A DNA stretch of 64,000 bases from Lophium mytilinum (Eukaryota). The notes under the pieces were generated by a model. That model searched no databases. It was not told where the DNA came from and saw only the letters and a list, made by a program, of their open reading frames with translations. The position numbers were made by a program, and so were the translations under genes. Below, piece after piece: positions 49,522 through 60,024 of this stretch (its first letter is position 1; each line of letters opens with the position of its first letter). The stretch spans positions 2,056,801-2,120,800 of the forward strand of contig MU004184.1 in assembly GCA_010093605.1 (NCBI GenBank), written 5' to 3'.

Positions 49522-50100
49522 CCCCAGCTTCGGTTCGTACACTAGGAGGATACTGCTTGGACGGAGTTTGTCTTGGATATGTGTATGACTGGCGCTGGGT
49601 TGGCAGGCGTTAACGATACCGTTGTCAAGCTGAAGGGAAAGCTTAGCGAAAGGAGTTGTGGTTTGAGGAAGGCGTTGGATTTCTTAGGCAAGGTCTGGAT
49701 GTTATGTAGTTGATCGTATAAGTTCTGTATATCCATACCTATTTTATCCATTCATTAGCATAAGTCTTGAAGCGAGAGCGACACCAAAGCACAAAAAGAA
49801 CTCACCAACCAACCAACCATCCCGATACAGCCTACGCGAAATATCATGCAAGTAACCGCAAAAACCTCCGCATTCCTCCTTTGTCCCACCCCACAGGCCC
49901 ACAAGCTCCCGGCTCCACATTCCACACACCACCTCCGCAAACGTCATCCCAAAACATCAAACACCTGATCCCACCCGCTTTGTCCACAGCACACCTATAT
50001 CTCCAACTCAGACATTACCCACTCTACCACGCAGCAACCTCGAAACCTACCCACAGACTAAACCCACGACCGCATCCCCGGATCCCAAGTCTCGCCAGCG

Positions 50101-51097
50101 ATGTACAAGCTCAAAGGCGGCACAGTGCCCCTCCCACGCTGGATCCTTGTCTTCCGCCTCCTCCAACTCATCTTCGCCGTCTTAATCATCGCGTTGACGA
50201 GCTACTCCATCTCGATCAACAAAGGCGGTCCCGTACGCGCATCCCTCTCCACCTCCATCCAGCTGCCCACTAACACCCCCACAGCTCCGCCCCGGCATTA
50301 TCGCCGTGCTCATAATCGCCATCTTAACCGTCTTCCCAATCCTAGCCTTCATCGCCCCCCTGCACATCGCGCAACGCCGCATCTACGACCCCCGCATCGC
50401 GCTGATCGGAGACGGCATCGCAACGTTGTGGTGGTTGGGCGCGTTTGCGGCGCTGGCGGTGTATCAGCGGATTTTCCATAGCTACGCGTACGATTACGAT
50501 AACAACTTTAAGCGGGACGAGAGGGCGCTGGAGGAGCGAGCTCTTTACTATGCCGGATGGAGGTGTGATGGGGGACGCTGTCGGCGGGCGTGGAGAACGG
50601 GGACGGCGGCGACGGTGTTTGCGGCGATTGAGTTGTGAGTTTTTCTTTTTGGCTAGGGCTGGTCGGGACTAATGCAGTGTTGTAGTCTGCTCTTCCTCTT
50701 GACGACTGTGCTCTTCCTCTACTACTACCACGCCCACATGGCCGGAGTTTCCGTATTGGGAGTATCCAGACACCACAAGGGCGGCCTTGAGGCTGGGGCA
50801 GTTGGAGCGGGGGTTGGTGCTGGAGCTGGTGCGCATCATGAGAGCCACGCTATGAACGAAATGCCTGCGAATACCGGCCCAACAGGCGTCGGTGCTGGCA
50901 ATAGTGTGGGTGGTCACCACAACGGCGGATCTATCGGTCACCACAATGGCCAATCCGTGGGCCAACATAACGGCCCAAGTGGTCCGGGGATGAATGGCGG
51001 TACTGGTGTCGTCGGGAATGCTGGAGACTATGGGGGACATAATGACATACCGCACCCGGATCGCCCGCCGCGTGAGGGCGCGTATGGCGGGATGTAG
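50101..51097 (+). CDS. MARVEL-like four-TM membrane protein with Gly/His/Asn-rich tail
   Basis: RLLQLIFAVLIIALTSY, DGIATLWWLGAFAALA and TAATVFAAIEF. Two introns (~50233-50284, ~50635-50685). Confidence 0.75.
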
Positions 51098-51628
51098 GAG
51101 TGAGTAGGAAAGAGTTTTCCAGGTTGAAGACTGCGAACTTTATGAGAAAGGGTTTTGAGAGGGTCATGATGAAGAAGTATTGCTCAAAGTAGCTTTTGAG
51201 GTTTTAGTCTATGATAATATCCCCTTCAAGAACAGTACGGGGTTTTGTTCAAGTCGATGACTAGAGGAAGAACGAAAAAGGATAATTGAGAGTATGAGAA
51301 TTGGAGAATTGCCATTTTGGGGCGACGACTAGGGGACACTCGAAACTGGCTATATTTATGTGATTGGAACGGCAGTTATCACGTGATATCCACGTGCATA
51401 TTGGAAATTGCCAGCCTTGGAGCAGCAATCAATACCCTGAAGCGCTAGAGAGGACGAGCCTGGACTTTTATGTCATGTAGGGATCCTTGAGCTTCAGTGC
51501 TTACCTTCAGGGCTGAGAGTTAATAGGCCATGCTAAACATATGTAGCTGATAAATTACGACTGAGTTTTTTTCGGCCTATTTGGATAGCCGCAAGTGCCG
51601 AAACAAGTCCTGAGAGCCGCTTGAAGAT

Positions 51629-51752
51629 GCCCAGCGCCAGGAATGCGACACTGGGCCTTCAAACGTACGATAGCTTGAAGAAATTTGATACCAAAGGTAG
51701 GTTTGGGCGACATTGCAGGCTCACCACATCGGAGCCACTAAACTACACCGGG
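51629..51752 (-). tRNA. Degenerate tRNA-like copy C with a 51-nt GT-AG intron
   Basis: Acceptor CCCGGTG/CGCTGGG, D-arm GTTTAGTGGC, intron GTGAGC..AAG 51724-51674, T-arm CCAGTG TCGCATT CCTGG. The anticodon stem does not pair well after splicing. Confidence 0.55.
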
Positions 51753-51796
51753 TTACAAAGCGCAGAGAACGGATCTCTGCAAAGAGCAAAAATCAA

Positions 51797-51931
51797 GTCC
51801 GGCGCCAGGATTCGAACACTGGGTCTTGGGATTCCAGTTGGCATAACTGTCCCTTCGTAAGGGCTTAGCGTGTGGTCGCGAGGGGTTATGACTGCTGCCT
51901 TACCATATTATAGCCACTAAACCACACCGGA
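51797..51931 (-). tRNA. tRNA-like copy B (anticodon GTT) with a 51-nt spliceosomal-type intron plus an 11-nt canonical-position tRNA intron
   Basis: After removing 51903-51853 (GTAAGG..GCTAAG..AAG): TCCGGTG TG GTTT AGTGGCTA TAAT A TGGGA CAGTTA[TGCCAACTGGA]A TCCCA AGAC CCAGTG TTCGAAT CCTGG CGCCGGA C. T5 downstream. Confidence 0.75.
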
Positions 51932-51981
51932 TTTAAGTTTGCTAGGAATAAATCACCACAAGACAGTTAGTTAAAAAAAGT

Positions 51982-52158
51982 GTCCGGCGCCGGGAATCGA
52001 CTGTTTTGTTAGAGAAAGGTACACAGACGGCGGAAGGACTCTTACACTCCGGGTCTCCCTCTTGAAGGGAGCTGCCCGCTGTGTTAGTCTTTGTGCAGCT
52101 ATTGATTGTTGTTGCCTCCGGATGGACTTACGGAATTATGCCACTAAACCACACCGGA
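51982..52158 (-). tRNA. tRNA-like copy A (anticodon TTC, Glu-like) with two spliceosomal-type introns
   Basis: After removing 52131-52072 and 52045-52001: TCCGGTG TG GTTT AGTGGCA TAAT T CCCTC CCTTCAA GAGGG AGAC CCGGAG TTCGATT CCCGG CGCCGGA C (72 nt). T7 tract at 51979-51973. Confidence 0.8.
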
Positions 52159-53249
52159 TTCCGCTGCGTGAAGAATAAATGGATACTTGAGTAGAGATTG
52201 TGCTTACTGGTCTGCTTGTCGGTGGAAGCAGATGATTCAGGATTGTACGTGCAGTACTGAGGCGAAGGGCTATTGATAATGAGCTCGACAGCAGGAGGCG
52301 TTCGTGTGTGGGGACACACGTACCAGGTAATCACACCAAAGAGATTCCAATTCATGTGTAGGTGGAGGTGAGAAGGATACCGTGTCATATAGAAATGTGT
52401 AGACTCTGGCAAGAATCATGAAGGGTTGAGAGCTGAGTTCGAGTTAAGCATCCGGATCACTCAGCGTGCAAAGAACTGGCGATGCTTCGAAGATGCGTGG
52501 CAACGGCTGTCAAGTGACGGATGCAAGGCGGAAAAAGTAAGGATGGTGGACCGTGGCAGTCTGCAGGATGGAAGTGTTCTGATTTGTGAGGGACCAATCT
52601 ACTGCCGGGGGAAACGGAGAACCCCTGCGGCGGTTGGTGAATGTCTCTGCAACTACTCCCATCCGCCATTGGCATTATTGGCAGAGTGACGATTAGTGGC
52701 GTGCGTCGAGACCGTTAAGAGCGACGCAGCCATCACCTCAGAGTAGCCTTTGCCAGCGCCATCGCCTTCGCCTTCTTCTGCCGCTGTTTCGAAATGGAGC
52801 ATCTTTGAAGGCCAGAACGATCGACCTCGGGGTTGATATGTAGAATGGCGGAGGGCAGAGATTGGACGCGGCACAGAGCGGGCGCCTTATCTGTGAAGGA
52901 TGGCATCGCATCCCCACACTGGCCAGGGTCTGTTGGAACGACTCCGACGTCGACCCTCCACGCCCTTTTCTTAGGGCTCCTCCAGCATGCGCCAAGGCAG
53001 TCGTTACGCTACTGCACTTAGAGAGCGTATGTGCAATCCGGTCCTCTTCAGTTGCACCCCGCCGCAACCCTCACCAGCCACCACGACGCCTGCAAGTCTT
53101 CAGCTCGTAGTAACATGCCGTAGTATTTAGCTACGCAGCTACGCGCCTGTGACTCCAAGCCCTACGAACCGCCCTATATCTATCCCGTCCGCCCGAACGT
53201 CGGGATTCCTAGAGGTATGCCGATACTGGACGCCTGGTAGCCTCGCAGA

Positions 53250-55984
53250 ATGCCTCGACCGAAGAAACCCGGCGCTGCTGAGCCCAAAAAGCGTTCGCGC
53301 AATGGCTGCTGGTATAGACCCTGCGCGCGGGACGCTCGCCCCCATTTATAAATTAAGGGACCAGTCTGACGTTGCTTATAGGCCCTGCAAGGCACGGAAG
53401 GTGAAATGGTAAACTTCCCATATTGTATTACCCCGCCCAATATCATAGTAACCCTCTCCCAGTGGCGAGGAGAAGCCGCGCTGTCTCAATTGCGAGCGTC
53501 AGGGCGAAGCTTGCGACTATAGCATCCGTCTCAATTGGAATGGCCGCTCAAAGAAGAGCGCAGACACTTCGGGGTCTGAAACTCCCCAGAGTGGCACCAG
53601 TAGCCCGTATACCTCGACCTTCTCCCAATCCGACATCTTCGCGCCGCCCGCGTATACCCATACCCATACCCCTTCGCCCGTATCTGGGCCACCTCCGCAT
53701 ATCTTCCACCATGCGAGAGGACATTCGAATACATCTGCGCCCAGCCCCGAGGTCTCCATGATTGATCCAGAGTTGATGAGGATCAGTCAGAGCCAGACAC
53801 AACCCATCATGGCTGCGTACGACACGTTGGAGATGCCGAGACGAGGGAACCCGACCTCTGCACCCATTGACAATCGTCTTCAGCAAGTGCAGTATCGAGG
53901 TAACATAGACTACCCGTCACCTACTGCCTCGAGTTTTGATGGCGGGAGTTATGGAGGAGGCTACATGTCTAGCGGGACTATTGACTCGCCCGCTTCTCCT
54001 CCTGCAATGCCACCCCCTGGGCGAAATATGTTCTCGCACGACTCGGCGACTGGTGGGGCTAGGCCTTACCCAGAGATGTCTGAACTGTCTGGACACCAAG
54101 CTAAGCGCCAGAAACGAAGCCATTCTAGGGACTCTCCAAATGTACTCCCCGGGCCTGGAAAGCAGGATAGTAGATGGGAGAAGGGAAGCGGGACTCTGTC
54201 TGTTGCAGACGCATTTTCGCCGAATTCAGGTCCGCTTACCCCTTACAGCCCATTTCAGGGTAATCCTTTGACGCCCGTTTCTTCAGTCGCCTCGGAAGAC
54301 AGCGGCATGCGTAATGGCCCTGGCCCTACTACTAGCCCGTACCCTCCACCGGATCTTCGTCGACTTTCCGTCAACTCTCTGCTCACTGGCCCTCCGGGTG
54401 ATAATCCGTCTGGATGGAATACCGACGTGCATGGCAGACATTATCCAGTTGCCGACTCAAGCACAACTACATATGGATACGATGTTGGAAATCCTGACCT
54501 AGATACTCTGAAGAACGACGATTTGAATGCTATCGCTGTATTCAGTCCTCCTGTTGGTAGTGCCGGGTTTGCAACCGACAGTCAATTCGATTCGCAAACC
54601 GAGAACGGCTTTGGCGACCGATCTAAAGATATCGCGTTCGAAAAAGGGGGATACTATGCAAAACCAGTTCCTATAAAAATCTCGAGATCACTGGAGCCAC
54701 TTCCAAGGCTCTTGCACGACAATCCAATGAACCTCCTATACTTTCATCATTTCCTGAACCACACAGCTAGGATATTAGTCCCGCATGATTGCGAGCAAAA
54801 TCCTTTCAGGAGCATTCTCCCACGTAGTGAGTTAGACTCCTTCAATGAGTAATCCCTAGCTGACCCGAACAGTGGCTGTCCAAAACGAGACCGTTCTCTG
54901 CTTGCTGTTAGCCTTTTCTGCGAGCCATCGCGCGCGTCTCTTAAATCATCCCGAGCCAGCTAATCGAATAGCCGTCTGGGTGCAGGATGTGTTTCCCAAG
55001 CTCCGACAGGATCTAAATAGCAACAACGAAATCTCCAATGCCACACTTACTACAGCCATCATGCTTGCATCTTTGGAGATAATCTCACCAAACACCTTCG
55101 AAGTTCCAATATCCTGGCAGAACCACCTCACCGTCGCTCGCCAAATGATCATTGCTCGTGGAGGGCCAAAGACTGTGCAGCGTAGCGACCCAACAGCCTC
55201 GTTCTTAGGACGTTGGTTTGCGTATCTCGATGTCCTCGGCAGTCTAAGCGGTGGCAAGAACGACCTTCCCCTGGATTCGTCTTACTGGTCCGACGACGAC
55301 TACGATACAGACGAAGACTATCAAATCGACTGCTTGCTTGGATTTACGAGTCGCTGTATTGGTATTCTCGCGAGGATTGCCGAACTTGCAAAGCAGTGTG
55401 AGAAGATCCGTTTTGACGAAGATGGCAACGTCCGAGAAGGGTGGAAGCCTACCCCCGAGATCCTTGAAAAGGCCGACAAGATCAAGGAAGACCTAGCAGA
55501 GGGCCGCGATCACGTGTACAAGGGCTGCAATCATCGAAGCGCGGATAACTCCGAGAGCGAAGCTGGTTGGGACGCTCTGGAGATTTACGCAACGAATGAA
55601 GCTTTCCACTGGGCTGGACTGATCCACCTCTGTCGCAGAGTGTTGGGGAAGCCGGCAACTGATCCAGACGTCCAGAATGCCATACGAGAGATCGTTGGAA
55701 ATCTGTATAAGGTCCGTCGCGGAAGCACGGCTGAAGCGTGTCTCCTGTTCCCGATGTTCACCGCGGGCTGCGATGCCATCGACGCAACCCAGAGGAACAA
55801 GATCATGGAGAGATTGAAGAGCGTGGAGGGATTTGGAATGACTCAGGTATGTTGCGAAGATTACCGTCGCAAAGGGGAATGACTAACGAGGTTCTAGATC
55901 CACAAAGCACGACAACTTATGCAAAAGGTCTGGGACACTGGAAAGCCGTGGGAAACGTTGGTGTATGGAGAGTTTTTGGGTTGA
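53250..55984 (+). CDS. Zn2Cys6 transcription factor with Fungal_trans_2-type C-terminal domain
   Basis: MPRPKKPGAAEPKKRSRNGCW|PCKARKVKC|GEEKPRCLNCERQGEACDY, then YFHHFLNHTARILVPHD, WFAYLDVLGSLS and CLLFPMFTAGC. Confidence 0.92.
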
Positions 55985-58896: not shown

Positions 58897-60024
58897 TCAA
58901 TCCGCGGGTGGTTTTGTGGGGCCTGATTGGGAGGATAGGGCAGTGATGCTGGATCCTGGGGTGTCGACCCATGTCATTGTTTCCGAGAAACTGAGGGTTT
59001 GGAAGGATGGGTTTTCGGTTGTCAGTCGCATTGCGTTTGGTGGTAGTGGTTGCTCGTCTTCCGTGGTTGACTGGCTTCCGGGTGGTGGGTCGGCAGAATG
59101 AGGGTCTCTGCTCTGCAGATTCTCTGGTTGCTGGTCTTCTTGTTTTGACGTCGTCCCATCGTCTGGAGTTTTTGGAGAGCTAGGATCCTTATTCTTCGCA
59201 TTCTCCACGTGCTGTTTCTTCCAAGTTGACTCTATTCGGTCAGGTTGAGGTGACTTAGAGGGAAGTTTCGTTGGTTTCCCAGCAGCCTCCAATTTCTTGT
59301 CAACGTCTTCGAGTTTGGCGAGAATGAAGGTAACACTGGCATCTCTCGCCTTGTTTATTCGATCCAATGCTGGCTTCTCCATAGTGTCGTAGTCTGGAGT
59401 TTTACTTGGAGTAGGCGGAACTGGGTCCGTGTCAGCCAGAAAAGCCGTCTTGTCCGCCAGTAATTGTCTCATGGTAGCGATATTCTGATCTCTGGCCCGC
59501 AGGCGGTTCCGGAGTCTGTGTAGAGCGGCCTCCTCTTCTACCTTCTTTCTCTTTCGAGCCTCAGATTGCTTGCCCTCCTCTACCGCATCCAGAAATTTCT
59601 GCACGGCCTGTTTTGCGACGGTCTCCATATGCGTAAACCGAACCGGTCCGATGTTCCCCCCTTTCATCCACCGCGCAACAACCACACTACCTTCTACCTC
59701 CAAATCGTTAAGTACTTTCTCAAGGCGCTTTCCAGCCCACTGCTCTCCATCGTCGTCATGCCCCGTTTCCATGATTGGGGGAGCATTGGGAACAATAGAT
59801 CGCTGTCGCGAGGGCTTCCGCCATGCTGCGATTTTATGATTCGCATAGTCAGCGACTCGGGGGCCCTTGAAGTCTGGTAATTTCTGTAATTGTTTTGCGG
59901 GCACCGAGGCTGAGAAAACGCCGACGAAGGTAGAGCCGCGCTCCTCAACCTCTCCTGAGCGGAAAATGCTAGAGTAAATGTCTTCGAATGGCGGCGACGG
60001 AGCGCGCGTACGCTTGCGAGACAT
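58897..60024 (-). CDS. IMPACT/UPF0029-family protein with coiled-coil C-terminus
   Basis: ERGSTFVG, ANHKIAAWR, HDDDGEQWAGKRL and VVVARWMKGGNIGPVRFTH. Confidence 0.88.
   Translation of the reverse strand: MSRKRTRAPSPPFEDIYSSIFRSGEVEERGSTFVGVFSASVPAKQLQKLPDFKGPRVADYANHKIAAWRKPSRQRSIVPNAPPIMETGHDDDGEQWAGKRLEKVLNDLEVEGSVVVARWMKGGNIGPVRFTHMETVAKQAVQKFLDAVEEGKQSEARKRKKVEEEAALHRLRNRLRARDQNIATMRQLLADKTAFLADTDPVPPTPSKTPDYDTMEKPALDRINKARDASVTFILAKLEDVDKKLEAAGKPTKLPSKSPQPDRIESTWKKQHVENAKNKDPSSPKTPDDGTTSKQEDQQPENLQSRDPHSADPPPGSQSTTEDEQPLPPNAMRLTTENPSFQTLSFSETMTWVDTPGSSITALSSQSGPTKPPAD

Follow-up and report, generated by a model that had tools for sequence, protein, structure and literature searches.

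Based on the analysis reported here, we suggest, with moderate confidence, that unit B, a tRNA-like gene on the minus strand of a 64,000-nucleotide (nt) stretch of Lophium mytilinum DNA (assembly GCA_010093605.1, contig MU004184.1, positions 2,056,801 to 2,120,800; the whole stretch is referred to as the window, and all positions are counted from its first letter), is one of three tandem tRNA-like modules that derive from a tRNA-Glu gene and lie in a spliced non-coding transcript. In this model, the cloverleaf of the modules is restored by the spliceosome and does not serve in decoding. The minus strand from 52158 to 51629 holds three tandem units with tRNA ends and arms, which we refer to as units A, B and C (Table 1). 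The original prediction, which was made from the sequence, had seen at unit B a single tRNA-like gene that needs two splicing machineries. The unit is tRNA-like as predicted; instead of being a single gene, it is one of three tandem units in a longer spliced transcript.

The spliced transcript of the array

The long interruptions in units A and B are missing from an assembled contig that we take to be RNA-derived. The contigs of the sequencing runs were compared with the window over 51300-52700. The DNA runs X1 and X2 contain all sampled words, run X3 contains 75% of them, and the two runs of a relative contain small shares; the label "RNA" for X3 is a guess, as no run is on record as RNA. X3 gave one 7389-nt contig that has no other letters than the window over the compared region and is interrupted by four joints, all four of which have CT..AC ends on the plus strand, i.e. 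GT..AG on the minus strand. Over the same region, the DNA run X1 shows no splicing. Because four exact GT..AG deletions in an otherwise identical sequence are cDNA-like, X3 is taken as RNA. Three of the four joints are inside units A and B; out of a stretch of 1.4 kb, these introns share about 150 nt of tRNA-like exon. No joint was found in unit C in this contig. The contig runs uninterrupted through all units and the spacers between them and includes a further intron upstream of unit A. A spliced and apparently non-coding transcript that is longer than the units contains the array.

At unit B, the predicted splicing event agreed with the contig to the letter. The GT-AG intron claimed at 51903-51853 on the minus strand is present (GTAAGG...GCTAAG...GAAG, 51 nt), and the spliced intermediate that had been proposed as a check was found: the X3 contig joins exactly at the predicted borders and uses the AAG acceptor. 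The alternative acceptor CAG at 51847, use of which would destroy the stem, is not the joint in this contig. In the spliced RNA, ATAATATG is joined to GGACAGTTATGCC, and the joined sequence forms the predicted stem between TGGGA (positions 27-31) and TCCCA (positions 39-43), which closes the 18-nt segment CAGTTATGCCAACTGGAA. In other words, the first half of the predicted pathway, in which removal of the GT-AG intron builds the anticodon stem, is supported.

The GTAAGG at the start of the unit B intron could also pair along its whole length with CCTTAC, 4 nt ahead of the acceptor, and the 5' splice site could therefore sit in a hairpin. The minimum-free-energy fold of unspliced unit B does not use this pairing.

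The removed stretches resemble introns of mRNA. Those in units A and B are 45-60 nt long and start with GTAAGT, GTAAGA or GTAAGG, and in three of the four introns ACTAAC, TCTAAC or GCTAAG is present 10-20 nt before the acceptor; no such branch-site-like motif was read in the fourth intron (52270-52323). As acceptor, splicing takes the first AG that lies far enough away to be workable. The stretches thus combine GT..AG borders, a fungal intron length and exact removal in the X3 contig, the RNA label of which is guessed. We infer that the long interruptions are removed by the spliceosome from an RNA polymerase II precursor.

Table 1. Features of the array and its surroundings, with the joints of the X3 contig. 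Positions are those of the window.
Feature	Positions	Strand	Description
Unit A	51982-52158	-	tRNA-Glu-type tRNA-like gene, three exon pieces
Unit A, exon piece 1	52132-52158	-	tRNA positions 1-28
Unit A, intron 1	52072-52131	-	60 nt; GTAAGT..ACTAAC..CAG; between positions 28 and 29
Unit A, microexon	52046-52071	-	26 nt; tRNA positions 29-54
Unit A, intron 2	52001-52045	-	45 nt; GTAAGA..TCTAAC..CAG; in T loop, 54/55
Unit A, exon piece 3	51982-52000	-	positions 55-73, discriminator C
T7 run	51973-51979	-	begins 3 nt past the unit A discriminator; resembles an RNA polymerase III terminator
Unit B (feature under study)	51797-51931	-	tRNA-Glu-type tRNA-like gene, two pieces
Unit B, 5' piece	51904-51931	-	positions 1-28
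Unit B, intron	51853-51903	-	51 nt; GTAAGG..GCTAAG..AAG; between positions 28 and 29
Unit B, 3' piece	51797-51852	-	positions 29-73 and the 11-nt segment
11-nt segment	51833-51843	-	position 37/38 of unit B; candidate SEN-type intron or anticodon-arm extension
T5 run	51788-51792	-	begins 5 nt past the unit B discriminator; no difference listed in relative X4
Unit C	51629-51752	-	degenerate third copy; no anticodon arm; T loop TCGCATT
Fourth intron	52270-52323	-	54 nt, GT..AG; 111 nt upstream of unit A, outside any unit
Joint in unit B	51851->51903 (cut +1)		skips 51; 98 letters on the shorter side; X3 contig
Joint, unit A intron 2	52000->52046		skips 45; unambiguous; X3 contig
Joint, unit A intron 1	52071->52132		skips 60; X3 contig
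Joint, fourth intron	52269->52324		skips 54; X3 contig
MARVEL-domain gene	about 50062-51100	+	Pfam E = 1.1e-07
Zn2Cys6 factor gene	53452-55882	+	

The restored cloverleaf and its history

Units A and B follow one plan: an acceptor stem TCCGGTG/CGCCGGA, TG, a D stem GTTT/TAAT with T13 opposite T22, one base at position 26, an anticodon stem of 5 bp, a variable loop AGAC, a T stem CC(G/A)G-N-G / CC(C/T)GG with one bulged base, a T loop TTCGAWT and the discriminator C. In both spliced RNAs, 7/7 pairs are formed in the acceptor stem and 3/4 in the D stem. The anticodon stem is complete in each (5/5; CCCTC/GAGGG in A, TGGGA/TCCCA in B), as is the T stem (5/5), from which an A is bulged in unit A and a T in unit B. 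Because the introns interrupt the units at 28/29 and in the T loop, this architecture of acceptor, D, anticodon and T arms exists only in the spliced RNA. The microexon of unit A, which has a GT..AG intron on each side, comprises everything in the anticodon arm past position 28, then the variable loop and the first strand (5') of the T stem; intron 2 of this unit divides a B-box-like sequence in the DNA.

The anticodon loop of unit A, CCUUCAA, is a plain loop of 7 nt with no insert and presents UUC (Glu) with C33 in a register parallel to that of unit B. The spliced arm of unit A can also be drawn in a register that is two bases off, with the stem CTCCC/GGGAG and the loop UUCAAGA (CAA). The tRNA finder ARAGORN reads this slipped register as Leu(CAA); the alignment with unit B favors the UUC register.

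Comparison of the two paralogues separates the tRNA body from its surroundings. The bodies of A and B are identical at 24/28 and 26/30 positions (86-87%) as compared with 31/60 in the intron (shuffle mean 31.1), 24/50 in the leaders (27.1) and 26/50 in the trailers (25.4). Moreover, paired positions have changed together: at 51-63, unit A has G-C where units B and C have A-T; at 1-72, unit C has C-G where units A and B have T-A; and all five pairs of the anticodon stem differ between A and B and are all still paired. Judged from these patterns, selection would appear to act on the folded tRNA body. Relatives differ little from the window inside the units. For X4, one difference is listed over 113 nt of unit B (51780-51892), as compared with 18 over 218 nt on the upstream side of unit A (Fisher p = 0.005), and X5 has none in 62 nt of unit A versus 12 in 163 nt of flank (p = 0.04); as X4 and X5 share most of their differences, they are counted as one lineage. 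Six of the ten differences in the X4 contig are unlisted and lie near its ends (51746-51775 or 51893-51922), and conservation of the 5' exon of unit B can therefore not be judged from it.

The three units share an ancestry that includes their defects. Three copies of the 18-mer CCGGTGTGGTTTAGTGGC, which belongs to the 5' half, are present with no more than one mismatch each, as against 0.03 occurrences expected, and the 64 kb contains no others. The motif at the 3' end is present in A and B with 0 mismatches and has one further match, with three mismatches, at 59984-60001 (0.2 expected); a profile of the 3' halves recovers unit C as well. Profile searches of the window with the unit halves gave no further copies. 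The A-box-like sequence TGGTTTAGTGG is present in all three units. Unit C has kept its 5' half and has GTGAGC at 28/29, which is homologous to the start of the unit B intron, and its first 11 intron bases resemble those of unit B. The intron position 28/29 and the T-stem bulge are common to all three units and are, therefore, older than the triplication.

Several features are difficult to reconcile with decoding. Position 33 is C in unit A and A in unit B, and the fit of anticodon and body fails for a decoding tRNA. To our knowledge, U at this position is near-universal in tRNAs. In every unit, the 5' strand of the T stem is one base too long, and unit B has an Asn-type triplet on a body that in unit A carries a Glu-type triplet. 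This body is presumably of the Glu/Asp type, an assignment by resemblance to tRNA sequences that serves as a lead only. The non-U33, the T-stem bulge and the Asn loop on a Glu body together argue that the units are not decoding tRNAs.

MALAT1 mascRNA is a tRNA-like element of a long RNA polymerase II transcript from which it is released by RNase P and RNase Z. We propose a similar pathway for the array. RNA polymerase II would produce a long precursor, from which the spliceosome would cut the introns at 28/29 (in A and B, and by homology in C) and in the T loop (in A). The cloverleafs could then form as tRNA-like structural modules. Most plausibly, and by analogy to mascRNA, these modules would be recognition sites for RNase P and RNase Z, and their cleavage would release tRNA-like RNAs of about 72-84 nt.

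Alternatives and the 11-nt segment of unit B

A number of observations weigh against this model. The RNA support is one contig from one run, with a guessed label, and such contigs lack ends, strand and level; the evidence as a whole comes from one organism and one RNA-type contig. That this contig is unbroken over the units indicates that RNase P and RNase Z cut the RNA incompletely or not at all, and no small RNA was seen. The block conserved in X4 takes in the unit B intron (one change in 40 nt), which makes the conservation regional rather than specific to the structure. Unit C is decaying, and the array as a whole may thus be disappearing. The T7 and T5 runs that follow units A and B, like the nearly complete B box of unit B, resemble features of RNA polymerase III genes more than parts of an RNA polymerase II gene. 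With Rfam, no family reached its gathering score on the genomic DNA, and the tRNA model was not matched at E values up to 10. A metagenome scan with the shared 18-mer gave no orthologous locus from a more distant species; none of the seven loci found was homologous as judged by reading. Finally, the calls by ARAGORN discriminate poorly. Spliced unit A is called at default and spliced unit B only at the 90% threshold; in controls, 7 of 86 GT..AG two-intron combinations in unit A, the observed one included, were called at default, and 5 of 34 removals in unit B were called at 90%, among them both the observed joint and the CAG-51847 alternative. None of 67 single removals in unit A was called at default, and for unit B the only joint called at default was an odd one, 51903-51864. 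As ARAGORN is this permissive, we base the case for the modules on the individual base pairs, on the plan common to units A and B and on the comparison of the paralogues.

The strongest alternative is that the array is a relic, i.e. a decayed tandem tRNA-Glu cluster in a region that is transcribed by chance, in which introns arose, splicing is real and the cloverleafs are without function. Unit C is degenerate and diverges fast in the relative, where its 5' half, at a loose contig end in X4, is strongly changed; every unit is defective for decoding; and the T runs past A and B, which have no counterpart after unit C, resemble leftover RNA polymerase III terminators. Gain of an intron always leaves the exon continuous, and the restored stem by itself therefore requires no selection. 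Decay does not readily account for the high identity of the A and B bodies next to introns, leaders and trailers at shuffle level, for the compensatory changes at 1-72 and 51-63, or for the replacement of all five anticodon-stem pairs by other pairs. Because the 28/29 intron and the T-stem bulge are common to all units, this divergence with kept stems came later than the defects. The crowding of three of the four introns into the tRNA-like exon is likewise unexpected for a relic. On balance, we regard a relic as unlikely, if a serious contender, and prefer modules with a retained fold.

A second alternative retains the whole of the original prediction, according to which unit B is matured by two machineries in order. 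After the spliceosome has acted, the SEN endonuclease and a tRNA ligase would remove the 11-nt segment at position 37/38, giving a 73-nt RNA with the loop CAGUUAA, in which GGGACAGTTA is joined to ATCCCA. The first step is the one observed in the X3 contig, and the spliced arm has the geometry that the second would require. As had been claimed, CAGTT pairs with AACTG and leaves a bulge of 3 nt (GAA), and the minimum-free-energy fold has the same pairing; C32 and the third-last base of the segment form a pair, five consecutive pairs are formed, and the bulge holds the 3' cut. Scored as a relaxed bulge-helix-bulge, the segment is complete, with 3/3 pairs in the outer helix, 4/4 in the central helix and cuts after the second bulge base. 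Among shuffled or random 11-nt inserts, 0.8% form an anticodon-intron register with five pairs in a row. Furthermore, ARAGORN at the 90% threshold reads spliced unit B as tRNA-Asn(GTT) with an 11-nt intron, and the segment is unchanged in the relative X4.

Other evidence speaks against this second step. No joint over 51833-51843 is present in the X3 contig, which retains the 11 nt, though this carries little weight because contigs drop rare and short forms. The product would be an odd tRNA-Asn, with A33, a bulged T stem and a tRNA-Glu-type body. The corresponding loop of the paralogue in unit A has 7 nt and no insert, the folding energy of the unit B arm is ordinary (z = -0.54; 55 of 200 shuffles fold as well), and spliced unit B is not called by ARAGORN at default. 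Of the ordered maturation that was predicted, therefore, the spliceosomal step is borne out by the contig, and for the second step the argument is one of geometry, with the 11 nt still in place in the contig. We consider action of both machineries on unit B improbable; it is more likely that the 11-nt segment lengthens the anticodon arm and stays in the RNA than that it is a second intron. The broader proposal, that the units form a tRNA-type RNA family with spliceosome-dependent biogenesis from an RNA polymerase II transcript in which, in B, a nested intron at the canonical position is then cut by the tRNA endonuclease, such that one small RNA would require both splicing systems in a fixed order, is in our view equally doubtful.

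The units could also be RNA polymerase III genes, the transcripts of which are spliced by the spliceosome, with the long transcript arising by read-through. The A-box-like sequence in all three units would fit such genes, and so would TGTTCGAATCC in unit B, which agrees at 10/11 positions with a B-box consensus in a search that allowed one mismatch. The T7 and T5 runs follow directly after A and B in trailers that are otherwise unalignable, and together with the B box of unit B they speak for an RNA polymerase III route. Conversely, the X3 contig spans the spacers past the T runs and has its fourth intron upstream of unit A, and the B box of unit A is split by intron 2 in the DNA. We judge this arrangement to be quite improbable and favor a long RNA polymerase II precursor. 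Lastly, it can practically be dismissed that the long interruptions belong to the tRNA type of intron, sit at non-canonical positions and are excised by the tRNA endonuclease via a bulge-helix-bulge, as in Archaea and Cyanidioschyzon merolae: such positions, including 27/28 and the T loop, are known (PMC3978253), but at none of the three junction pairs of the long introns is a bulge-helix-bulge present (among the best-ranked registers listed, the central helix forms 1-3 of its 4 pairs and the outer helix 1-2 of its 3), all four joints are GT..AG, branch-site-like motifs are present, and one joint lies outside any unit.

Known systems and the surroundings of the array

With modules formed by splicing as the preferred explanation, the array is most similar to MALAT1 mascRNA and the MEN-beta tRNA-like RNA (NEAT1), in which a cloverleaf-like, non-decoding structure is also part of a long non-coding transcript; recognition by RNase P and RNase Z, as for mascRNA, is what we propose here. 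It is different from both in that the cloverleaf is split by spliceosomal introns and is present solely after splicing, in having three tandem units that are derived from a tRNA-Glu-type gene, and in matching no Rfam family. The U6 small nuclear RNA of Schizosaccharomyces pombe is encoded by an RNA polymerase III gene with an mRNA-type intron. The units resemble it as small structured non-coding RNA genes with RNA polymerase III-type features and a spliceosomal intron. They differ from it in the RNA concerned and in that the contig, by spanning the spacers and a further intron, points to a long precursor.

Disrupted tRNA genes in Archaea, Cyanidioschyzon merolae and nucleomorphs have bulge-helix-bulge introns and stay hidden from standard finders until their parts are joined (PMC3978253). 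As in these genes, breaks within the anticodon stem and within the T loop divide the tRNA body; unlike in these genes, the interruptions have no bulge-helix-bulge and instead have GT..AG borders and branch-site-like motifs. Eukaryotic tRNA introns are placed at 37/38, are described as cut by an endonuclease and are contrasted with spliceosomal introns in the tRNA processing review PMC10275265, which also mentions the MEN-beta tRNA-like RNA. The 11-nt segment of unit B is similar to such an intron in pairing with positions 32-36 and in having a 3-nt bulge at the 3' cut. It is dissimilar in that its arm would become a substrate only after the spliceosome has acted, in that the product would have A33, and in that it is a candidate by geometry.

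tRNA introns and mRNA introns have been treated as separate worlds, while here splicing of the mRNA type assembles tRNA-shaped RNAs. In the full texts searched, which included few subscription journals, no spliceosomal intron in a tRNA or tRNA-like gene was found. If the units are functional, they would be the first case of a tRNA-type RNA that can fold only once the spliceosome has acted, and they would imply that genes for structured RNAs can tolerate and keep spliceosomal introns in stems and loops. They would also imply that genes of this kind escape tRNA finders and Rfam when genomic DNA is scanned; those described here went undetected, and ARAGORN at default gave 0 tRNA genes in the 64-kb window. 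Spliced unit B is, in addition, a concrete substrate for asking whether SEN acts on a product of the spliceosome.

Some candidate assignments were rejected. The weak Rfam matches NEAT1_3, RMST_1 and bxd_2 (E 3.8-7.1) are far under the gathering scores and were taken as chance. A tRNA-derived short interspersed element does not fit complete 3' acceptor strands and three copies in a single tandem array with none elsewhere in the 64 kb. The metagenome loci with the 18-mer resemble other tRNA genes or are chance matches with different flanks; two of them, L002 (1454-1530) and L006 (1501-1660), are apparently unrelated tRNA genes, and the halves of L006 seem to be parted by a long insertion.

A frame of 95 amino acids, from 52388 to about 51941 on the minus strand, opens once three upstream introns are removed, and crosses unit A. 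Most of it is covered by the stop-to-stop frame 52128-52415, for which searches gave neither a homologue nor a Pfam family, and of the 13 differences in the relatives, 3 are at first, 5 at second and 5 at third codon positions (hand count). A coding reading of this frame was rejected because the covering frame lacks homologues and Pfam families and the differences have no codon-position bias. In our reading, the transcript is non-coding.

In this dothideomycete fungus, the array is located in a gap of 2.3 kb with the MARVEL-domain gene on one side and the gene for a Zn2Cys6 transcription factor on the other, and is on the strand opposite to both. The X3 contig reaches about 3.3 kb and 2.9 kb past the compared region; it probably fuses the minus-strand transcript with both plus-strand neighbors, which would imply overlapping divergent and convergent transcription. 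The MARVEL-domain gene is split over three frames and, therefore, contains introns; the C-terminal part of the membrane protein that it encodes is rich in Gly, His and Asn. The content of the window is fungal: other Pfam domains in it are Fungal_trans_2, a Mug190-type domain and PhoD_2/WW, and the nearest named protein to the window, with 98% identity, is from the dothideomycete Mytilinidion resinicola.

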